64,000 bases of DNA from Macrostomum lignano (lineage: Eukaryota): the NCBI GenBank assembly GCA_002269645.1, contig NIVC01000175.1, positions 186,001 to 250,000 of the forward strand, written 5' to 3'. The stretch's first letter is position 1, and the number at the start of each line of letters is the position of its first letter. The notes under the pieces were generated by a model. It was not told where the DNA came from, did no database searches, and saw only the letters and a program-made list of their open reading frames with translations. A program made the translations under genes and the position numbers. This document shows positions 49,001 to 60,606 of the stretch, piece by piece.

Positions 49001-49326
49001 CTCTTTCTCTCACATATTACCGGTAGCTAGTAGTAGCTTTGATATTATGTCAAATAAATCCATACAGTTTGGTTTAAAACCATTATAAAATTTATTGGAG
49101 CATTTTTGGCCAGCCGAGTTAATGGCATCGATAATCTAAAAAATCAGCCTTAAGGCCAGTCGTAAATACATGTAAATAGACGGAAGTTGAGAGAGGAAAA
49201 TGTCGAGGGGTCAGGCAATACATGTATGTATCAATATTGTCTGACTGCTAACAGATGTACATCGTTCGTTGCAAGTGTACACGTACGTTACATATAGCAG
49301 AGAGAAAGCAAATTCACAGCATCTGA

Positions 49327-50132
49327 ACTACGTAATGCGCAGATAGAGCAGGGTTTTGGAGGTGAGGTGGGTGTCAGAGCCAATGCAAATTCAACGCCTA
49401 TCTAAATACATTAGACCGATTCTAATTGGTCCAGAGTCATTATGTGAGACATTTATACTCTCATGTAAAATCTATACATGTAATCAGTGTATCGTACAGC
49501 AGCGACGAGTACAATATAGTACGCATAATTAGCGCTTCACCGTTGTTGTACGTAGAAACGCGCGCGCCCCCATCCCCACACAATGCAGCATTGGTGTACG
49601 CAGAATTAACTGTCTATATTAACTGTCCATATACCAAAAATTGGCAGAATTAGAGCGCTCACCCACCCCATAACGTCTATATTATTACTTGTCCATATTT
49701 ACTGTCCATCCCAAAATTGGTGTACGCGCAGAATTGTAGCGCCAGCCCACCCCATAACTGTCCATATTATTACTTGTCCATATTTACTGTCCATATATAC
49801 ACCCAAAATTGGTGTACGCGCAGAATTGTAGCGCCCGCCCACCCCATAGCTGTTTATATACCAAACTTCGTGTACGCACAGAATTGTAGCGCCCACCCAT
49901 CCAAGAAAATATTCTTTGACCCCCACAATTAATTGGCGGCCCCGCGCGGAGGCATGATGAGTCAGCCGCTGTAAATCGCCGCTATCCACACTGTTATATC
50001 CACTCCTTCCATACTTCACTCTCTAGAATTCAGCCCTCGTCGACACTCCGAGACAATTACGTCATCCACCAACCCCCTCTCCCAAATAAGTTTTCAAAAG
50101 GCGTATATATTTACACAAAAAGCCGGCCGAGC
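49327..50132 (+). repeat. Left terminal inverted repeat (806 bp)
   Basis: Reverse complement of 58963-59769 with scattered substitutions; starts ACTACGTAATG; contains ~90-bp imperfect sub-repeats. Confidence 0.97.
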
Positions 50133-50262
50133 CACAATGCTAACTTTATAGTCAGACACGTCATCAAGGTCTGAAAACACAAACTTCTATGCATGAAATA
50201 TTCTCGTTTAACAAGATGCCAAACCAATTTTGTTCAGACAGCAAACTATAAATAAGAAAATT

Positions 50263-50596
50263 CGGATTCTCGGCCGTTTATCTAAATTCACCTAGTTCAA
50301 TTAACACCCCAATCATGTGGAAAACACAGTGTTTGACAAGCAATTTTTGGTTGCCAAAGCACAAGAGGATCAGACCGCCAAAGTATGAACTGGCAACAAC
50401 TTGGAGCAAGGATTTCAGCACACCTCCATCGCCAGCACCGAAAATAGGTACAAAAGGCTCATTTTTTCTGGAATCCTCGATAACGACAACACCGTAAAAA
50501 GCTCGTTAACATGTAATTAAAACAAAAACTTATTGAGACTATCGGGTATATAAGCACCAACCCGGGGCACCAAGCACCCGTACCTGCAAATTTTTC
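50263..50596 (+). pseudogene. Internally deleted duplicate of the ORF1 cassette
   Basis: 50341-50596 matches 51031-51290; leader motifs CGGATTCTCGGC and CAGTGxTTGACAAG match 50598-50672; about 358 bp of ORF1 are missing. Residual ORF 50315-50497 matches the ORF1 C-terminus. Confidence 0.8.
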
Positions 50597-50674
50597 TCGG
50601 ATTCTCGGCAGTTTTTCAAGCTCAAATAACATCCCCACCACTAGTGCGAACAACGCAGCAGTGCTTGACAAGAA

Positions 50675-51211
50675 ATGAGCTGGATTTCCAGAGACTACCC
50701 CCTATTATCGAACGAGGAAAAAGACGAATATGAGGCCTTGAAAAAATCTGCTGACTGGTTGTGCATTTGCCACAGCAAACCGATTTCCGAGCGATTAGTC
50801 ACCTTCAATGCCAAGGTCGAGGAAATTGATCAAGGCCCCTACGACAGCCAAGACTACGCAGCAGCCAGGATAAATGAGCAACTACGGGACAAAATGAGAT
50901 TCAAAGCTGATTTAGCACGAATGGAAAGATTACTGGCTCCGATACTAAGTGAAGAGCATCGCCAAAAAATACGTTTTCGGAACCATCAAGATCTGTATAA
51001 TCCGTCGTGGGAGGAGCAACAAAAGATTTGGAATTTTTGGCTGCCAAAGCACAAGAGGAACAGGCTGCCAAAGCTTGAACTACCAGCAACTTGGAGCAAG
51101 GATTTCAGCACACCTCCAACGCCAGCACCCGAAAATAGGAACAAAAGGTTCATTTTTTCCGGAATCCTCGATAACGACAACTCTGTAAAAAGCTCGTTAT
51201 CGTGTAATTAA
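50675..51211 (+). CDS. Element ORF1, hypothetical protein (178 aa)
   Basis: ATG-initiated ORF downstream of TATATAAG (50547-50554); no recognisable motif. Confidence 0.65.
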   Translation: MSWISRDYPLLSNEEKDEYEALKKSADWLCICHSKPISERLVTFNAKVEEIDQGPYDSQDYAAARINEQLRDKMRFKADLARMERLLAPILSEEHRQKIRFRNHQDLYNPSWEEQQKIWNFWLPKHKRNRLPKLELPATWSKDFSTPPTPAPENRNKRFIFSGILDNDNSVKSSLSCN

Positions 51212-51306
51212 AACAAAAACTTATTGAGACTCTCGGGTATATAAGCACCAGCCCGGAGCATCTGCAAGCGCCCGTACCTGCAAATTTTTCTAAACAGACA
51301 AGAGAC

Positions 51307-52017
51307 ATGGAGACAGTGCAAGACTTCAACTGCGTCAAGCGAGAGCTGCTGGCACTCAAACCGCGAGGTCCGAGCTTCAACGGGGTTGAAACGTTTGACA
51401 TTGAATATGACGAACAGGGACCTCTCTACTTGGCCAATGCGGTCCCTGTTTTGATCGTCAAAGGTGTGCGTACTGACAACGAAGGTCGCGAATTCATCAT
51501 CATTGCACAAAAACACATTGAAAGCTGCATACCCTACACTTTCAACACTGTGGCGGAGCACCTTTCCAGCGAAAGTCTAGCTCTGCTGGGCTACAACCCA
51601 GCGTTTGGAGGTGACAGTGCAGCGTTTGGGCTGGCTCACGACTTTAAAATGTACGACCAAAACGGACTGCCTGTAGAGGATTACAAAAACAAGAGCGGCT
51701 ACTACAGGATTCTGTTTACTCTCGACACGGCCGTGATTCGAGACGCTGTTTTGACCGCAATGCCAAAAATTCAACAGCTACAGTTTGTCGAAGAAGCCAA
51801 ACAGGCATTCGATCGTTGCTTTTGGACGCCACCTCCAAAAATCAAGGTAGGCGTCAAGAAAGTAAGCAAGAAAGCAAAGAAACCACCAAAGCTTGTCAAG
51901 GAGAAGCAGCCAAAGGTGCCTAAAAGTCAGGCCAGAAAGCGACAGCATCAATCGAAACTAGTAGCAGCCAACGAATCAAAGAAGCGGTCGAAAGCCCCAA
52001 GAAGGATACGAAAGTAA
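51307..52017 (+). CDS. Element ORF2 (236 aa), possible OB-fold ssDNA-binding protein with a basic C-terminal tail
   Basis: ATG ORF downstream of TATATAAG (51238-51245). FKMYDQNG..SGYYRILFTL..PKIQQLQFVE resembles viral SSB beta-strand patterns (by eye only); Lys/Arg-rich NLS-like tail. Confidence 0.55.
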   Translation: METVQDFNCVKRELLALKPRGPSFNGVETFDIEYDEQGPLYLANAVPVLIVKGVRTDNEGREFIIIAQKHIESCIPYTFNTVAEHLSSESLALLGYNPAFGGDSAAFGLAHDFKMYDQNGLPVEDYKNKSGYYRILFTLDTAVIRDAVLTAMPKIQQLQFVEEAKQAFDRCFWTPPPKIKVGVKKVSKKAKKPPKLVKEKQPKVPKSQARKRQHQSKLVAANESKKRSKAPRRIRK

Positions 52018-52036
52018 AAACTGCCGAAAAATCTAC

Positions 52037-52516
52037 TTGCAGAACGTCGAGTGTGTGAACCGAGTGTTTTGCGCGAAATGGAGCCGCATGCCTGACTTGG
52101 ACTGGGCGAGCGCACGGACATTTCGCAGACCAAGAGCTCTTATCAATTTGCGAATAGGAAAATGTACAATCAACTTTTTTCAGCGTTCTTTGTCTGCAAT
52201 TGTATTCGGTTGTCGCTCAGTCAACCAAGTTTTGCGTCTTTTTCCTCAATGTAAACCAATTTCTGTTGTTGTTACCACTAGTACTTACCGCGCTGAAGTA
52301 GACAGATGGCCAAACTTTTTCCAAATTGCATACTCCGGATCCCGCTGGGTGAAGTGGGAGTGTGAAGTTTTCAATGGAATAGTAATAAAGTCTCCATTTC
52401 GCAATGCTAAATGTTTATTATGCGGAAAGAATGGCCGCCTTGTTTTCCTTGGAATACGAAACTTTAAAGAGCTCTGTCAAATGTACGATCATGTGACTAG
52501 CGTTTTGCATGCCTAA
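52037..52516 (+). CDS. Element ORF3, divergent TATA-box-binding-protein-like; start uncertain (frame open from 51965, first ATG 52088)
   Basis: LQNVECVN ~ TBP LQNIVSTVN; RRPRALINLRIGKCTINFF...IVFGCRS ~ RFAAVIMRIREPRTTALIF...CTGAKS; WECEVFNGIVIK...CLLCGKNGRLVFLGIRNFKELCQMYDHVTSVL ~ YEPELFPGLIYR...[31 protein letters not shown]. Confidence 0.7.
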   Translation: MQNVECVNRVFCAKWSRMPDLDWASARTFRRPRALINLRIGKCTINFFQRSLSAIVFGCRSVNQVLRLFPQCKPISVVVTTSTYRAEVDRWPNFFQIAYSGSRWVKWECEVFNGIVIKSPFRNAKCLLCGKNGRLVFLGIRNFKELCQMYDHVTSVLHA

Positions 52517-52622
52517 TCCATGTAGCTGTTGCGTAACTTTACTGCTTTACCACTGTACCGAATTTGTATGTACGTACAAGCTGCTATGAAATTGTCTATA
52601 AATATATTGTGCATAAATTGCA

Positions 52623-53012
52623 GTGCACTGCAACCAACATCTTTTTGCTAAACAAAATGAAAACGGAATCTCCAGACTATGTTCTTGTCGCGGCGAGCTC
52701 GCAGAGCTCGCCAAAGCCCGTCCCACTCTTCGGCGGGCCATTATTCGAGGTGCAGGCAAGGAACTGATTCATTGTCTCTGTGAATTGAGTCACAACGTGC
52801 TCCGGGGAAATATCGATCTTTCTCCGAAACAGTATCTACGATTAAAGCGATACAGAAGATCGTTGCGTGAATTGGCAGACACAAAATTGTCTATAAATAG
52901 GAAGAAGAATATGCTTCTCTCGAATCCTCAAGTCGGTGGCTTTCTACCCATCCTTGCATCTGTTGCTGCACCGCTAATATCAAGCCTGTTTGGCGGACTA
53001 CTTGGTCGCTAA
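52623..53012 (+). CDS. Small basic Polinton/adintovirus core-like protein with an adenovirus pX-like GGFLP hydrophobic tail; 5' end uncertain
   Basis: LAKARPTLRRAIIR..LIHCLCELSHNVLRGNIDLSPKQ..RLKRYRRSLRELA..QVGGFLPILASVAAPLI is a pattern I recognise from Maverick small ORFs. No in-frame ATG; the nearest ATG (52657) is out of frame. Confidence 0.7.
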   Translation: MHCNQHLFAKQNENGISRLCSCRGELAELAKARPTLRRAIIRGAGKELIHCLCELSHNVLRGNIDLSPKQYLRLKRYRRSLRELADTKLSINRKKNMLLSNPQVGGFLPILASVAAPLISSLFGGLLGR

Positions 53013-53013
53013 A

Positions 53014-53664
53014 ATGAATAAATACGTTGTTGTACCAGAAGAAGAATTTAATAGACTAAGTCAAGGCGCACCCCGAGAAATTGCATCCAAAACAGAATAT
53101 GAAAAACTCATTGAATACAACACTCAACTCCAAAATAAACTAAGTCAGATCAAGCAAAAGAAGAGTAATCGTTTTCCTGAACGACAACAACGTGTTTGGG
53201 ACATGCTGACAGAAAGATACCCAAATTTGGAGTACAACAAGTCGTGGGAAATTGTATTTGATGGAAAAACCTGGCCAGGAAGCAATATTTTCGATCTATT
53301 GAAGGAGATTACATCGAATGAAAGGCGCGACCGCCCAAGCCCAAAATATAGTACCGCTTTTTGGGCCCTGGCCGAAGAGGCAGATATTGCAAAAGCTCTA
53401 CTAGGACGACGCCAACAAGAAGAAGTCAGTGTGAAAAAAGAAGTCGGCACGGATCCGGATCGAGACGATTTTTTAGTCGAGCAAGCAATTGGAACTAATG
53501 ATTTCTACAACGACTTCCACAAAGACCAAGCCAGTGGCCTGAATGAAATTAAAAAATATGAAGATCGTGGCAGCAATGCCTACAGGCATGCTTCATACCA
53601 ACTTCGCGAACCAAAGAGGCGGCAGAAACCAGCAGTAAAATACGAGACGTTAAAAAAACTATAA
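53014..53664 (+). CDS. Conserved Polinton/adintovirus accessory protein (216 aa from ATG 53014)
   Basis: YNKSWEIVFDGKTWPGSNIFDLLKEIT...STAFWALAEEADIAKALLG resembles the 'GE(l/i)v.dG..i.gSnI.DL' Maverick ORF pattern (recognised from memory). Confidence 0.65.
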   Translation: MNKYVVVPEEEFNRLSQGAPREIASKTEYEKLIEYNTQLQNKLSQIKQKKSNRFPERQQRVWDMLTERYPNLEYNKSWEIVFDGKTWPGSNIFDLLKEITSNERRDRPSPKYSTAFWALAEEADIAKALLGRRQQEEVSVKKEVGTDPDRDDFLVEQAIGTNDFYNDFHKDQASGLNEIKKYEDRGSNAYRHASYQLREPKRRQKPAVKYETLKKL

Positions 53665-53704
53665 ATAGAAATCATTTTCATGATTTATAATCTGTTTTTG
53701 GATC

Positions 53705-53971
53705 ATGGGTGCCGCAGCTGTAACTTCAAAGCTTTGCTCAGACAAACCGTCTGTGGAGTTCAAGTGTAATTACTCATGCTGTGCATCGAATCTAGTTGCG
53801 AATGAGGGTGAAAACCGCTCTTCGGAGAGTGTACGAACAGGGGGACGCCGCTTTTACAAATGCTGCCCGTGTATATCAGGAGGCCAAACGGCTGGTCCCC
53901 TCCCTGACGAGACGCCAAACAGACGAATGGCTGAAGACCCAATCGAGCTACACCCGGCACAAGAGGGTTAA
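53705..53971 (+). CDS. Small putative myristoylated/Cys-rich protein overlapping the integrase 5' end
   Basis: ATG 46 bp after CTATAAATA (53659); MGAAAVTS N-terminus and CNYSCC cluster. Confidence 0.4.
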   Translation: MGAAAVTSKLCSDKPSVEFKCNYSCCASNLVANEGENRSSESVRTGGRRFYKCCPCISGGQTAGPLPDETPNRRMAEDPIELHPAQEG

Positions 53972-54869
53972 AAGAAAATTCCGAACCGGAAAAGTAATGT
54001 CGGGAGGCTTCATGGAAACTGTGCAAGCGGATTTGATGGACATGTCGCGATACGAACAATGGAATGATGGTCATCGATATATTCTAGTTGCAATTGACGT
54101 GCTTAGTAAATTGGCTTTTTGTCAGTCAATAAAATTGAAAAGCGACACTCCAAAGGCTTTTGAAAGCATGATCAAAGACTTCCCCATTAAGCCTTTATAT
54201 CTACACGTTGATCGAGGTACCGAGTTTTATAACAATCGCATGCAGAACTTACTGAAAGCCCATAATATCAAAATGTACAGTACAAACTCTGTATACAAGG
54301 CAAATATGGCTGAAAGGCTGATTAGGACTCTCCGAAAACGTTTAGCTCGCTACTTTGAGCATAAAAACACGTGGCGTTGGATCGACTATTTGCCAATATT
54401 GGTTAAAAGTTACAACAACACAGTACACTCTACTATTGATATGAAACCTTCGAGTGTCGGTCTGCACAATCAAAAAGAATTGTGGGAAAAGCTCTACAAG
54501 GATCCTGAATATGATGAACCAGTTTACCAAAAAGGGGACTTTGTCAGAATTTCAAAATCTCGTCGAGCCTTTGACAAGGAAGCATACGATATGTACAGCG
54601 AAGAAGTTTACGTTGTGTCTCAAGTATGCCCGGGACCGCCTCATTTTTATCGCATTTCCGACCTATCTGGAGAACAAATCGAGGGTCGATTCTACTATAA
54701 TGAACTTTCAAAGACGGTTCGACCGGACCGCTTTGTTATAGACAAAATTCTGCGTCGCAATGTCATCATCAATGGTGTCGCTCATCATTTCGTTAGTTGG
54801 CGCGGCTATCCCGAGTCGTTCAATGCATTTGTACCAGTTGAGGAAGTTATAAATATAAGACAAGGATGA
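53802..54869 (+). CDS. Retroviral-type (rve, DDE) integrase with a C-terminal chromodomain
   Basis: Catalytic D (TVQADLMDM), D (LHVDRGTEF) and E (NMAERLIRTLR); YNNTVHSTIDMKP; chromodomain FVIDKILR...HFVSWRGYPESFNAFVP. ORF intact. Confidence 0.95.
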   Translation: MRVKTALRRVYEQGDAAFTNAARVYQEAKRLVPSLTRRQTDEWLKTQSSYTRHKRVKRKFRTGKVMSGGFMETVQADLMDMSRYEQWNDGHRYILVAIDVLSKLAFCQSIKLKSDTPKAFESMIKDFPIKPLYLHVDRGTEFYNNRMQNLLKAHNIKMYSTNSVYKANMAERLIRTLRKRLARYFEHKNTWRWIDYLPILVKSYNNTVHSTIDMKPSSVGLHNQKELWEKLYKDPEYDEPVYQKGDFVRISKSRRAFDKEAYDMYSEEVYVVSQVCPGPPHFYRISDLSGEQIEGRFYYNELSKTVRPDRFVIDKILRRNVIINGVAHHFVSWRGYPESFNAFVPVEEVINIRQG

Positions 54870-54903
54870 ACACACATACACTCGAAACGTGTAGTATATT
54901 ACA

Positions 54904-56055
54904 ATGCATCTATTCCTACCTAGCAATGCGTGCGTTGAGCACTATCCTGAGAATAATTCGGCACATTATAGCATTAATTTGCCCGACACCCTCCACTTTC
55001 CGAATCATGAAGTCTGCATCGAACGGATCTACTTTTGTAAAGAATTCAAAACCGTCCCCGATAATCGAATGGTTGATGTCCTGACCAACGCTCCGAGGAT
55101 GAAGTGATTGACATTGAGGTGAGAGAAAAACCCGCCTCCACGTATAAACAGTTTGCGTCGGTTTCTCTCGCCGCGGGGCTATCAACAGCCAACGAAGTGG
55201 TTGATGCAATCATCGCCGATCTAAAATATGAGCAAGACGATAATGCGATGATTTGCATTGAGCGTTCACAGGAAGGCCAAATTTCAATTGTGAACAAATC
55301 ATGGTATGGTGCGAACATTAGGCTGTCCAGTAATGTGCGTAGCATGTTTAAAAAGGTTGATGACGCTGGAAATAAATCAAATATCGAAGTAACGACTTTT
55401 TTATTAAACCCAAGAAATTCGTTAGTATTCGCTATAGAATTGGAGTCCTCCTCCTCCATAGAGAGTCCGATGACTCTAACGTTTGAAAAGAGTGTCTGGC
55501 CTTCTAGAACGTCACTGCGGATTGCTAAAGGATTCTACCGCACGCCTGATGAGCTCTTAAATTATGTTAATGGAGCGCTTTGGGGTCGTTTCAAAGCTCC
55601 CAATAAGTCCAGCGACGAGAGTGGATGCATTCCGCTACAACCCTTTTCTGAACCGGTGTGAGTACAAACCCATTGAAAACATTTTATTCGACATTGGAGA
55701 GCTTGCTGCCATTCTCGGCTTTCGCGAAGATGTTTTCAATGAAACTCCAAAGACCGCTAAACGACCAATCGATTTAACAAATGGTGTACAAACTATGTAC
55801 ATCTATTCAAATATTGTCGACTCTGCCATTGTTGGAGACGTCAAAGTCCCCCTGCTTGGGGCAATTCCTTTGAATGAAAAGGTATACGGCGAACGAGAGT
55901 ACTACGAGTTTGTCAATCCATCCTACTTACCGTTGGTGAAACACCCATTCAAAACCATTGAGGTGCAAATCTGTGACGATATGGGCAAGTTAATGGATCG
56001 GATTCTTCGAGGCAAAACTGTTTTATCGATCAACATTCGTGAAATTAAGCTATAA
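54904..56055 (+). pseudogene. Minor capsid protein (penton-like), ~383 aa, broken by two compensating frameshifts (~55075-55104 and ~55600-55630)
   Basis: N-terminus LFLPSNACVEHYPENNSAHYSINLP; middle IAKGFYRTPDELLNYVN in a different frame; C-terminus MYIYSNIVDSAIVGDVKVPLL..F.NPSYLPL...KTIEVQICDDMG back in the first frame. Confidence 0.85.
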
Positions 56056-56099
56056 ATAAAGAAGTTTTCACGAATAAAAGGTAGCAACTGATCGACAAT

Positions 56100-56468
56100 A
56101 TGCCTTCAATCTTGATCGGAGGAGCTTTACCGGTATTTTCCGGTGCACAGCGCGGCAACGGCCTGTTTGGCAGCATTGCCCGATTTGCCCTGCCAATTTT
56201 AAAGAGTTTTGGCAAAAATATTCTTCGCCACGGAACACGAGCCCTAGCTACAACAGTTAGCGACACACTCGATCAAGGCGGGAACTTGAAAGAAGCGGCA
56301 TTGCGTAACTCTGTCCAGGCAGCTAAAGATGCTTTCAAGGACACAGTCGCACAACGAGGTAGCGGCAGACAAAGACGAAGAAAGATGACTAACAAAAAAA
56401 CGAGAAAAAGACTGCAGCATTCTGATATTTTCGACTCTATAAATAAAAAAACCCGTGCCAATAACTGA
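56100..56468 (+). CDS. Amphipathic, putatively membrane-lytic virion protein (adenovirus VI / cupiennin-like), 122 aa
   Basis: QRGNGLFGSIARFALPILKSFGKNILRHG amphipathic helix; QRGSG followed by a basic tail ending HSDIFD; sits between penton and hexon. Confidence 0.75.
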   Translation: MPSILIGGALPVFSGAQRGNGLFGSIARFALPILKSFGKNILRHGTRALATTVSDTLDQGGNLKEAALRNSVQAAKDAFKDTVAQRGSGRQRRRKMTNKKTRKRLQHSDIFDSINKKTRANN

Positions 56469-56511
56469 TCTGTCTATTAGAGCACCACACTAAGCCGCTG
56501 TTGAATGAAAA

Positions 56512-57793
56512 ATGACTGAGTGCCTGTGTACAAAGTCGGAATTCGAGCTTTTTGCTCCTCGCGCACACCAAATTGCTGCAATTAGCGCCACCACTGAAGA
56601 AGTTCACCCTGTTGCCAGTGTTGAAAATGCCAGCGTGGTCGAATTTAGGATTGTTGGTGGTGAGACGTTTATCGATCTTAACGACATTGACCTCGAGATT
56701 AAGGCCCGCGTTAAGCAGTCTAATGGTACAAATCTTGCTGCTGATTCGAATGTTGCGCCGGTCAATTACGTCCTTGAAAGCATGTTTAAAAACGTCACGT
56801 TGACAATCAACGGGACACACGTAGAGTCGAGCAATAACAACCACGCTTACAAGGCCTATATTCTCACGTGTTTGAATTACGGACACGATTCAAAAACTAA
56901 TCAACTGAGAATGATGGGCTACGCAAAGGACGCTGGAGGTCAAATGGCTGTGGTTGGAAATCCTGGCTTTGTAGCCCGCAAGGCGATGGCGGCAAACTCA
57001 CGCACCTTTCACCTTTATGGACCTCTTAGTTTAGACTTTTTTGTTACCAACGACCGAATGCTACTGCCATACACTGATATGGTAATTACGCTGACCATGC
57101 ACAATTCCGGCTTCGTTCTGGAAAACCACGCGGACGGGGTTGATGCGCGGCTAGTACTCGAGAGTGCCAAACTACATGTGCGCCGCGTCAAGGCAAACCC
57201 CCAATTGGCATTGGAGATTGAAGAACAACTAGGCAAACAGAATGCAATCTATCCGATTGAGCGACTTGTTGTGCACAATACTTCAGTGGCTGGCGGTGTT
57301 CGGGACATGTCAATCAATAATATATTTCCTGAACAAAAGCCTAAACTAGTGGTTGTTGGCATGGAACAGCGGCGCATACAACGGTGTGGCTACACATAAC
57401 CCGTTTAATTTTGAGCCATTTGGTGCCGACAGTGTCGCTCTGTATAAGGACGGAGTCAGTCTGTGTGGACAACCGTTTACTCCTCGATTCGGTGTTCATA
57501 ACTATGCTCGCGAGTATGCCATGCTACTAAAAAGCCTAGGAAAGATGAATCGGGACCTGGATATTGACGTATCATATTCCGACTATGGAGCTGGCTACTG
57601 CTTCTTCGCCTGGAATCTCATGCCCGACATGGAGCTGGGCGGGCATAGCATGCCTCGCGAGCGAGGGAATCTGACGCTACAAATAAAGTTTTCTGCTGCC
57701 TTGGCCGCAGGAATCAACGTGTTGGTGTTTGGCTACTTTGACAATACTGTGCAAATCACTCGCGGTCGTCAGGTTATTCTAGACTACGTGTAG
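56512..57793 (+). pseudogene. Major capsid protein (double jelly-roll, hexon/PY-like), ~427 aa, one frameshift at ~57364
   Basis: N-terminus CLCTKSEFELF...EEVHPVASV...VEFRI..FIDL. The frame break ATG G AAC AGC is restored by +2 nt to VVVGM(V)NSGAYNG..NPFNF. C-terminus GNLTLQIKFSAAL...VLVFGYFDNTVQITRGRQVILDY. Confidence 0.9.
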
Positions 57794-57843
57794 AAACAAA
57801 CATCTCTTTTTTATTCTCGAATAACGACCATATTCATGCCGAT

Positions 57844-58293
57844 ATGAATAGTCTAGATATATTAGAACGTCTAATACTACCTGTCCCTGTTCGAGTAACA
57901 CCAGTTGACAGGATTCCGCAGCCTGTTTATCCTGCTGCATACGTGATTAACTTTGACACTGGCAATCTACCAGGCACTCACTGGGCTTTAATTTGTCTTC
58001 ATGCCGATGAGAGCGTGACATTTTTTGACCCCTTGTGTATCGATCCTGTGCCAGATTTATTAAAGTTGTGGATCGCAAAGTATGTCCCTGTGGAGGTGGC
58101 CATGAACCGGCATCCTGTACAGCATCCGCTGAGTGTGACCTGCGGGGCTCATGTAATATTTGTGGCTGAAAAACACTTTCTGGAGGGTCTGTCAATTGAA
58201 AAAATATTGCGCGACTGTTATAGCACAAATCTTTACGAGAACGACTTGATGGTGCAGAATCACTGTCTACAAATAAAGCAGCATCATCCATAA
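57844..58293 (+). CDS. Adenain-like cysteine maturation protease (149 aa)
   Basis: YVINFD..NLPGTHW (His), FFDP (Asp), VQHPLSVTCG (Gln/Cys) catalytic motifs; intact. Confidence 0.92.
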   Translation: MNSLDILERLILPVPVRVTPVDRIPQPVYPAAYVINFDTGNLPGTHWALICLHADESVTFFDPLCIDPVPDLLKLWIAKYVPVEVAMNRHPVQHPLSVTCGAHVIFVAEKHFLEGLSIEKILRDCYSTNLYENDLMVQNHCLQIKQHHP

Positions 58294-58295
58294 AT

Positions 58296-58946
58296 ATGAT
58301 TGGGCTGCCTATCAAAATGTATCAAACAATAGACCCCGACTCTTTAAAATTTGCCCCCAAAACGTCTGCAATTTTTGCTGGGGTGGCTCAAAGCGGCAAG
58401 ACCACACTTGTGAAAAACCTATTGAGACAAGAATTTTTTCAAGATCCGAAGCCGATTCGCGTAGACTGGTTTGGCCACTATCCGGATCCTGAACTGTTTG
58501 AATTGCCGTACCCTGTAAATTTTCGTTCGTGTACATTTGATCCTGAACAATATGTCCCTGAACCAAATATTCTGCTTGTCGTCGACGACCAAATGCATGC
58601 CATGGAAAAGAGTGGCGCTTTTACAACTTTTTTCACGCGCAAAGTCTCCCACGTGGGGTTCCGACTTTGGTATCTTGTGCAAAACCTGTTTGCAAAGGGT
58701 AAGGAGCACCGAACTCAGTCGCTCAATTCGAACTACCTTGTTTTATTCCGCAATGTACGGGATGCCAGCACAGTGTCTCATATTGCAAGGCAGCTGGTCC
58801 CCACTAATCCAAAAAGTTTTGTCAAAACGTATGAGGATGCTACTCGCGACCCCTACTCATACTTGATTGTAAACTGTTTGCAAAATGCTCCTGCTCGCTA
58901 TTATTCAAACGTTTTGGGTCGTCACCCAATTGTGTATGCTAAATAA
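58296..58946 (+). CDS. A32/FtsK-HerA-family genome packaging ATPase (216 aa)
   Basis: Walker A GVAQSGKT, Walker B LLVVDD, SH..F.LWYLVQN and R..SLNSNYLVLFRN..D motifs; intact. Confidence 0.93.
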   Translation: MIGLPIKMYQTIDPDSLKFAPKTSAIFAGVAQSGKTTLVKNLLRQEFFQDPKPIRVDWFGHYPDPELFELPYPVNFRSCTFDPEQYVPEPNILLVVDDQMHAMEKSGAFTTFFTRKVSHVGFRLWYLVQNLFAKGKEHRTQSLNSNYLVLFRNVRDASTVSHIARQLVPTNPKSFVKTYEDATRDPYSYLIVNCLQNAPARYYSNVLGRHPIVYAK

Positions 58947-58962
58947 ATATATACGTATCAAA

Positions 58963-59769
58963 GCTCGGCCGGCTTTTTGTGTAAATATATACGCCTTTTG
59001 AAAACTTATTTGGGAGAGTGGGTTGGGGGATGACGTAATTGTCTCGGAGTGTCGACGAGGGCTGAATTCTAGAGAGTGAAGTATGGAAGGGGTTGATATA
59101 ACAGTGTGGATAGCGGCGATTTACAGCGGCTGACTCATCATGCCTCCGCGCGGGGCCGCCAATTAATTGTGGGGGTCAAAGAATATTTTCTTGGATGGGT
59201 GGGCGCTACAATTCTGTGCGTACACGAAGTTTGGTATATAAACAGCTATGGGGTGGGCGGGCGCTACAATTCTGCGCGTACACCAATTTTGGGTGTATAT
59301 ATGGACAGTAAATATGGACAAGTAATAATATGGACAGTTATGGGGTGGGCGGACGCTACAATTCTGTGCGTACACCAATTTTGGGATGGACAGTAAATAT
59401 GGACAAGTAATAATATGGACAGTTATGGGGTGGGTGGGCGCTCTAATTCTGCCAATTTTTGGTATATGGACAGTTAATATAGACAGTTAATTCTGCGTAC
59501 ACCAATGCTGCATTGTGTGGGGATGGGGGCGCGCGCGTTTCTACGTACAACAACGGTGAAGCGCTAATTATGCGTACTATATTGTACTCGTCGCTGCTGT
59601 ACGATACACTGATTACATGTATAGATTTTACATGAGAGTATAAATGTCTCACATAATGACTCTGGACCAATTAGAATCGGTCTAATGTATTTAGATAGGC
59701 GTTGAATTTGCATTGGCTCTGACACCCACCTCACCTCCAAAACCCTGCAGAATCTGCACATTACGTAGT
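58963..59769 (-). repeat. Right terminal inverted repeat (807 bp)
   Basis: Ends CATTACGTAGT, followed by the TSD ATCTGA. Confidence 0.97.
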
Positions 59770-60606
59770 ATCTGATCATCTGCCTGTAATGCGGGAGAAT
59801 GCTGCACATGGCATTTGCGGTGCCGCTTCTGGTTTGCCTGCCATCTGGCGGTCGTAGTTTATCTAGAATTCATCGGCTGATGTTTCAGCGGCTGCCATCG
59901 GACAGATAGATCGTGTTGCTCTCGCGACGCTGCGACTGTCTGCACTTCGGAGACACCATCCACTGCTCAGCTTTTTGCGCCTCGGCCGGCCGACGCGCAC
60001 ACGGCACTCGACAGTCAGCACTGCGTCCTTCCGCAGCTGCCTCCGCTTGCACATCCGGCGGTGGCTTCTGGCCTGCTGCTTTTGCTCCGTGACGCTGCGC
60101 CACAGGTCCGTCGCTGAATCAGTACTTGTTGGTTGAAAACGACCCTAGAAGCAGGCGGAGCCCTAATTCGTCCCAGCATCAGTTCAGTCGGCGACTTCTT
60201 AGTCAGCGCTCGATTGGATGACCAATACGTCAGCAGCAGCTCCTGGAGCACGTACGGGACCTGCTGCACCGGCGCCAGCATGCAGAGTGGTCTTGATTAA
60301 GCCGTTGTACCTCTCGACTCTGCAATTCTGTTGTGGGCACTAGAACGGAGTGAGATGGTGCCTGATGATGGCGACCGAGCGGAGGAAGTCCGTGAACTCA
60401 CTCAATGCAAATTAATGCCATGGTAATTTTGTCTAAAGTCCCAGCGGATTAACAGGCTGCAACACAGTCACACAGGCAGTCACTGATGAAGATTCTCTAT
60501 ACGTGAGTGGTCCTTGGCTATGATCTTCAGGCCACTTGAAGTAGAGAACGTGGACTGCGATGAAAAATCGTTGAGACTGCACCAAGCTTGGCCGCCGGCA
60601 GCTTGT

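Follow-up and report, generated by a model that had tools for sequence, protein, structure and literature searches.

Polintons are defined by the presence of a polymerase and an integrase in one genome, and an element that holds the virion and integrase genes of a Polinton between intact ends, without any polymerase gene, poses the question of what copies it. Such an element occupies positions 49327-59769 (10,443 bp) of a 64,000-nucleotide stretch of the Macrostomum lignano genome, G000:C175:186001-250000 (contig NIVC01000175.1), which is called the window below; other copies are named after the contigs of the same genome (C followed by a number). Referred to here as component A, it is probably one half of a two-component Polinton, the half with the capsid, packaging and integrase genes, whose counterpart with the polymerase is a second element, component B, the two being mutually dependent and forming one system; a polymerase-less A and a separate polymerase-only element with matching ends in the same genome are likely to be the halves of one split Polinton. 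The gene sets of the two are complementary and do not overlap, with virion genes and an integrase in A and a DNA polymerase of family B that is primed by a protein (pPolB) in B. The ends of A and B fall in the same two classes, which are pair-specific by subfamily, and B, itself without integrase, is flanked by integrase-type target-site duplications (TSDs). Both halves are under selection, and recombinants as well as spliced-looking polymerase contigs exist. Dependence seems to run both ways: the element that probably donates the polymerase is capsid-less and integrase-less, and not an autonomous Polinton. The evidence comes from one genome and two A/B pairs.

The boundaries of the window element are those that a first-pass annotation, made from the letters alone, had proposed. 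Terminal inverted repeats (TIRs) of 806 bp (49327-50132, + strand, starting with ACTACGTA) and 807 bp (58963-59769, - strand) align with 793 of 806 bases identical and one gap, and the hexamer ATCTGA lies against both outer edges (49321-49326 and 59770-59775) as a perfect 6-bp TSD. The termini read 5'-ACTAC...GTAGT-3', unlike the usual AGTAGT. Between the TIRs lie 8,830 bp of co-oriented frames on the + strand, the longest of which runs for 357 aa from stop to stop; the co-oriented tiling that had been described stands, whereas the upper size of ~430 aa given with it is reached by the capsid only when a frameshift is read through. The absence of a family-B polymerase was borne out by a profile of pPolB homologues, which had no match in the six frames of the element (best E 7) and reached E 2e-293 in the B elements used as positive controls. 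No other replicase (helicase, primase) in place of pPolB was matched by Pfam in the 13 open reading frames (ORFs), of which the largest unassigned one has 236 aa.

At least 57 ATPase loci of family A were counted among the best 150 of 302 candidates, in which identity falls into tiers of 97-100% (subfamily A1) and 85-86% (A2), with broken copies between them and other Polintons at ~40% or less; an integrase search (best 150 of 1,350 candidates) gave the same two tiers and then 44% or less. The interiors of A1 copies differ by ~1% from the window element. Ten A1 and ten A2 loci were taken by ATPase rank for a comparison of layouts, and the question raised earlier, whether other copies have the same arrangement, is answered with yes by all 20: each lacks pPolB and the gene order is kept, with one copy rearranged and another cut off at the edge of its contig. 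Copies with both ends found span 10.1-10.9 kb. Nonsynonymous divergence (dN) between A1 and A2 genes is 0.07-0.51 and synonymous divergence (dS) 1.6 or more, or saturated, and low dN at saturated dS indicates that the polymerase-less layout has long been kept under purifying selection. This favors the helper-dependent lineage that the first-pass annotation had considered. In a capsid tree, another of the checks suggested with that annotation, A1, A2 and unnamed relatives form a clade apart from the co-resident autonomous Polintons (100/97), three of the autonomous rows being half-genes. Scoring of 13 A1 copies gave open frames for the capsid in 7, the integrase in 8 and the penton in 5; some of the breaks may be assembly errors.

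Component B and its pairing with component A

Component B was reached by tracing the end sequence of A, which led to elements with pPolB between A-like ends, and the early suggestion to look for polymerase-bearing elements with the same termini was thus answered by elements that have no capsid or integrase genes. The genome gave 119 matches to pPolB genes. B polymerase loci number 101 (126/126 candidates scored) and form two subfamilies, B1 at 88-100% and B2 at ~60-69% identity to the query polymerase piece, from each of which ten copies were taken by polymerase rank. B2 copies span 8.5-9.8 kb and B1 copies mostly 9.5-9.9 kb, longer where insertions are apparently carried, one truncated copy measuring 4.4 kb. 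Profiles for the integrase, capsid, penton, protease and ATPase matched none of 22 B elements with paired ends, the control on the window being positive. Exact TSDs flank 22/22 B elements, 13/14 A1 and 6/7 A2. B1 and B2 differ by a dN of 0.19-0.44 at a dS of 1.2 or more. Their cargo varies, with a PC4-domain gene present in 9/9 B2 and 3/13 B1 copies and a dUTPase in the same three B1 copies (E 6e-6 and 1e-30, respectively, at L030:711-3841).

The B polymerase belongs to Pfam family PF03175. Its closest named proteins are Macrostomum lignano gene models in UniRef (84-98% identical), followed by proteins at ~35%, which is also the level of its relatives in animal genomes. The gene (L029:898-5039, - strand) carries spliceosomal introns conserved between B1 and B2, with GT..AG introns whose codon positions are identical in 11 copies of B1 and 10 of B2, as scored at two junctions for both subfamilies. 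For the B1 copy L029, an intron-type joint at 1287-1370 is present in contigs of the RNA-like runs X1, X5 and X10, from three studies; it is not in X17, which covers the place, and two further joints of this type occur in X1 only. X1 covers the whole B element and therefore likely contains DNA. No RNA runs on record are listed as containing component A; reads were mapped to B only. An annotated B1 gene model keeps the ExoI-III, PolA and PolB motifs and misses PolC, a motif that the genomic copies do have (YCDTDS). In a polymerase tree (FastTree only), B1 and B2 form a group (100) apart from the polymerases of autonomous Polintons, with long-branch joins flagged among the autonomous rows. A 1,206-aa pPolB of a separate family was also seen at C2506, where the neighbors match none of the window's proteins.

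The ends tie A to B. In the window, the terminal 31-nt word (49327-49357, + strand), in which fixed ACTAC and TTTT flank the variable nt 6-27, is of the same class as in B1 and recurs unchanged as the end of C2786, a B1 copy. Further in, an inner TIR block (49957-50132, + strand) has a counterpart with 86% identity close to one end of C1485, also a B1 copy; A1 and a B1 copy have ~180-200 bp of inner TIR in common at this identity. In a blind end test on 40 copies picked by protein alone, the A1 end class (ACTACRTA) was found in 10/10 B1 copies and the A2 class (ACTACTA) in 10/10 B2 copies. Over 31 nt, the mean number of differences is 7.5 for A1-A1, 7.7 for B1-B1, 9.8 for A2-A2 and 9.4 for B2-B2; partners are nearly as close (A1-B1 8.3, A2-B2 10.6) and non-partners are not (A1-B2 16.8, A2-B1 14.7), a contrast reached in none of 20,000 label shuffles. 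Four B2 copies list the A1 region C261 as nearest, the word in question coming from a neighboring type-2 element in its flank; for the means, the A1 word was taken. Across the genome, longer patterns find 73 A1-type, 182 B1-type and 321 type-2 ends (the last by a looser pattern), compared with 0, 0 and 4 matches in the controls. An 11-mer end pattern by itself did not exceed its control (141 vs 182) and served as a lead only.

When the 57 A ATPase and 101 B polymerase loci are set against each other, three lie on a common contig and the nearest pair is 49.8 kb apart. Three elements (C1705, C356 and C816) have 450-735 bp of A1 TIR on the outside and B1 sequence on the inside, which indicates that A1 and B1 molecules met and recombined. 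An A2 locus, C150:69198-81089, has an A2-type end on one side and a B2-type end on the other and is a possible A2/B2 recombinant or nested insertion. The divergence of partners can be compared in two pairs only, both at saturated dS, which cannot be dated.

The terminal 31 nt are hypervariable, with 41 distinct words in 52 elements and a mean of 7.8 differences, and yet the left and right words of one element are the same in 42 of the 52, compared with 12 of 1,326 pairs of different elements (the set includes elements found by end pattern). An autonomous Polinton with AGTAGT ends, C393:106807-123169, has two ends that differ at ~nt 7-19, so that terminal variation may not be limited to A and B. 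Non-coding elements of 2.6-14.4 kb (C657, C903, C1526, C247, C982, C695 and others) are in most cases the B1 left arm in fold-back form; their ends are of B1 or A1 type, and 21/23 have exact 6-bp TSDs. They resemble defective interfering genomes and fit the picture of defective genomes that use both halves.

Genes of component A

All genes of component A are on the + strand. The integrase (53802-54869, an open frame of 355 aa) matches the Pfam domain rve (PF00665) above the cut-off at E 2.5e-8, in agreement with its first identification, and its C-terminus has a weak chromodomain match (PF00385, E 0.055, below cut-off). The major capsid gene (56512-57793) lies in two frames in the window copy. 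The capsid of a natural sister copy is predicted to fold as a double jelly roll (pLDDT 87.7), and this model matches PBCV-1 Vp54 (best E 9e-18) as well as the capsids of mavirus and Sputnik, which upholds the hexon named at first; its animal relatives, named 'F54H12.2-like', are 29-37% identical, and unnamed relatives on short contigs without context 78-80%. The penton-like minor capsid gene (54904-56055, in three frames in the window copy) was assigned by position and similarity, its C-terminal part matching the same-position gene of a co-resident autonomous Polinton at E 1e-8. Between the penton and capsid genes is a basic ORF of 122 aa (56100-56468), which is the position of PW in vertebrate Mavericks (PMC8097293). 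The adenain-like protease (57844-58293, 149 aa) has His, Asp and Gln/Cys motifs by sequence and matches the protease-position gene of the autonomous Polinton C1704 at E 2e-14, with no hit in Pfam or PDB. It is followed by the packaging ATPase (58296-58946, 216 aa), with Walker A (GVAQSGKT) and Walker B (LLVVDD) motifs and a match to the C1704 ATPase at E 2e-25. The labels of protease, ATPase and penton, all three given in the first-pass annotation, thus draw on motifs, position and likeness to a co-resident autonomous Polinton, while curated Pfam and PDB searches returned no match. Since its capsid gene is in two frames and its penton-like gene in three, the window copy is complete in structure and not in coding, and only in the former sense does the earlier description of a complete element apply.

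In the left arm, ORF1 (50675-51211, 178 aa) is 61% identical to its A2 counterpart (dN 0.30, dS saturated), and a degenerate duplicate of 51032-51291, comprising its 3' end and what follows, precedes it at 50342-50597 (+ strand, 235/256 bases identical). ORF2 (51307-52017, 236 aa, with a basic tail) has four unnamed relatives at 41-73% and no hit in Pfam, Atlas or PDB. The SSB label once given to it is supported by no tool; five of nine representative hits are repeat proteins with scattered weak matches. ORF3 (52088-52516, 142 aa) carries a TBP-like lead, PF00352 being found in 28/30 Atlas hits at a score of 0.91, with recognition below the reliable level; a close unnamed relative (69%) lies on a short contig without context, a poor fold model (three sequences, pLDDT 40) had no match at Z 5 or more, and no TBP was among the PDB sequence hits. 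The TBP-like reading of this ORF survives as a lead, and the argument that an organized regulatory left arm speaks against decay is weakly backed, with one of its two genes a lead and the other without tool support. Next come a 131-codon frame (52617-53012) that ends in an amphipathic GGFLP stretch, has no in-frame start in the window copy and is 77% identical in A2; ORF5 (53014-53664, 216 aa; 48-61% identical in A2); and a Cys-rich ORF of 88 aa (53705-53971) that starts with MGAAA, overlaps the start of the integrase and has an A2 counterpart of 92 aa. Relatives with genomic context amount to one distant locus in metagenome contigs and none in viral contigs. Outside the element, positions 1-46000 of the window hold dense minisatellite arrays (units of 8, 9, 14-16, 19-22, 30 and 41 nt) and have no long non-repeat ORF.

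Proposed mechanism and rival explanations

The steps by which the two halves might operate are drawn from established Polinton and adenovirus biology. The protein-primed pPolB of B would copy both halves from a common terminal origin; the integrase of A would insert A, B and the non-coding fold-back derivatives; and the capsid, protease and ATPase of A would package A and probably B. The split would be older than the divergence of A1 and A2. The left-right identity of the end word would arise in replication, when the two TIRs pair on the displaced strand, a step that fits the matching words of the 42 elements. A terminal-protein domain of pPolB is described in one preprint (bioRxiv 2024.03.18.585575). 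Whether both halves are packaged could go either way. Just as evenly poised is the fuller proposal of a bipartite Polinton, which would be the first segmented virus among double jelly-roll DNA viruses, with a replication segment and a virion/integrase segment that would be separately packaged, transmitted and integrated, in two end-specific pairs whose partner specificity would be set by the fast-changing terminal word.

Several observations weigh against a two-component Polinton. All of the evidence consists of integrated copies, from which action in trans and co-packaging are inferred, and autonomous Polintons, also present in the genome, might in principle be the source of the enzymes. Terminal nt 32-50 are common to A1 and B2 and not to A1 and B1, which leaves the pairing clean in just the outermost 31 nt and a single inner block, and exact 31-nt words common to A1 and B1-type elements are few (2/18 A1 words). 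Two of the B TSDs lie within simple repeats, and one B TSD is visible for 5 bases only. The RNA status of the X runs is the tool's guess. None of the 13 A1 copies has all eight scored frames open. Finally, a common ancestral genome of A and B is not shown by the trees, the capsid and polymerase trees having different outside rows.

B outnumbers A (101 loci to 57), its cargo varies between and within subfamilies, its polymerase has spliceosomal introns and it spawns many non-coding fold-backs, features that would all suit a pair of mutually exploiting replicons, in which a capsid-less, linear-plasmid-like B would use the integrase of A and lend A its polymerase, spreading unpackaged and only within the genome. 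End classes and depth of divergence, however, match subfamily by subfamily, as for halves travelling together, and A and B are of similar length (~9-10.5 kb); neither point is decisive, and such replicons are considered unlikely. A different origin, in which A and B would have arisen by complementary deletions from a single-piece parent virus still in existence, outside the genome or in its unassembled part, and supplying the missing functions, draws on the fact that searches of the genome itself score only the best candidates and that this genome does generate and amplify deletion derivatives. Family A3 (C424, C593 and C641; ~28 near-identical ATPase hits among the best 150 of 302) is polymerase-less and ~15 kb long, and its ~300-aa ORF keeps pPolB residues ~16-290 and ~1376-1408 of a C1704-type element, from which the rest was lost by internal deletion; the autonomous element C1704 is 65% identical to it. 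This is what a deletion derivative looks like here, as judged from sequence, and A1 and A2 have neither such a remnant (none was found by profile search) nor such a parent. The ordinary deletion derivative once considered for the window element is not supported, with no pPolB-bearing sister in 20/20 copies taken by ATPase similarity and ATPase and integrase identity falling directly from the family to 44% or less among the best candidates scored. A single-piece parent would moreover need four matching deletions to account for the common layouts of A1/A2 and B1/B2, and no linked locus occurs among 57 x 101, so that this origin is improbable. C4072 and C2932 had been candidates for autonomous elements with a polymerase of B type and virion genes together, and were rejected, as the B2 there has its own TIRs and interrupts an A3 capsid gene.

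At C114, C393 and C1704, long pPolB frames do have ATPase and capsid genes next to them, and A could therefore be an ordinary non-autonomous Polinton that unrelated autonomous Polintons copy with their polymerase, or that host enzymes copy, with B incidental. The genes of the autonomous Polintons are, however, only 27-41% identical to those of A, their polymerases are far from that of B in the tree, and C393, the sole one with ends seen, starts with AGTAGT and not ACTAC; why B has the ends of A and recombines with it would also be left unexplained, and little probability is given to this reading. Single-base frameshifts scattered over all copies, some of which may be sequencing errors, are the one hint of an assembly artefact. 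For the layout an artefact is refuted by the many copies with their own, different TSDs and by 20 listed sequence-archive runs from seven studies in which the stretch is present in whole or in part (up to 0.88 of its words), and its probability is negligible. The two-component Polinton is hence the preferred reading.

No description of a bipartite Polinton was found in a full-text literature search; Repbase entries, subscription papers and preprint supplements beyond its reach could hold these families. With ~150 coding loci and defective fold-backs in one genome, the fossil record makes copy-number balance, partner specificity and parasitism by defective genomes directly countable, and a variable end word that matches from left to right allows the model in which TIRs pair during Polinton replication to be tested directly. 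A survey method that requires core genes within 20 kb (bioRxiv 2023.08.22.554363) is blind to pairs of the A/B type, so that many 'incomplete' Polintons may be segments.

Comparison with known systems

Like Polintons/Mavericks (adintoviruses), component A has long TIRs, a TSD whose 6 bp are the usual length in Polintons within a range of 5-8 bp, an rve integrase, a double jelly-roll capsid and a putative penton, protease and ATPase; in its order of integrase, penton, small ORF, capsid and protease it equals gene module two of vertebrate Mavericks (PMC8097293). Polintons/Mavericks are given as 12.7-24.6 or 13-25 kb long and end in (AGT)2, (AG)3 or (AC)3A (PMC8097293; bioRxiv 2023.08.22.554363), whereas A, at 10,443 bp and with ACTAC ends, is below their length and has another end motif. 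The A/B system works like a Polinton, with the difference that pPolB and integrase are never in one element. Intact vertebrate Mavericks have a pPolB without introns (PMC8097293), unlike B. Adintoviruses are defined by an integrase with a C-terminal chromodomain and a PolB that carries at its N-terminus a domain of OTU-like type (bioRxiv 2024.03.25.586562). Component A alone, having no pPolB, is not to be filed as an autonomous Polinton. The A3 deletion derivatives are, like A, TIR-bounded, amplified and without a working polymerase, but keep both ends of the deleted pPolB and have a 65% identical autonomous relative, neither of which applies to A1 and A2.

A virion module without pPolB is also found in Polinton-like viruses (PLVs), Tlr1 and MELD viruses (bioRxiv 2024.03.25.586562; bioRxiv 2024.03.18.585575), and for a PLV associated with an entomopoxvirus it has been suggested that integration functions are provided in trans (PMC11296320). 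Those genomes have another replicase of their own, while A has none by Pfam and has in addition a dedicated pPolB partner with matching ends. Yeast killer/helper linear plasmids of the pGKL1/pGKL2 type are protein-primed and capsid-less, one being assisted by the other (PMC13348850), and transpovirons are protein-primed linear replicons without capsid (bioRxiv 2024.03.18.585575); in contrast to A/B, these are cytoplasmic or giant-virus-associated, with no integrase and no virion partner with matching ends. Bidnaviruses and the Drosophila Vesanto virus combine an adintovirus-related pPolB with several segments that have a TIR sequence in common (PMC8363768; bioRxiv 2024.03.25.586562), and A/B is like them in its pPolB, its separate parts and its common terminal sequence. 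Theirs is single-stranded DNA with a parvovirus-type capsid and NS1, whereas A/B has a double jelly-roll capsid, a packaging ATPase and a TSD-leaving integrase. A stable split into two integrating halves, if true, would mean that genome segmentation, a known feature of bidnaviruses (single-stranded and derived from Polintons), arose among double jelly-roll viruses as well.

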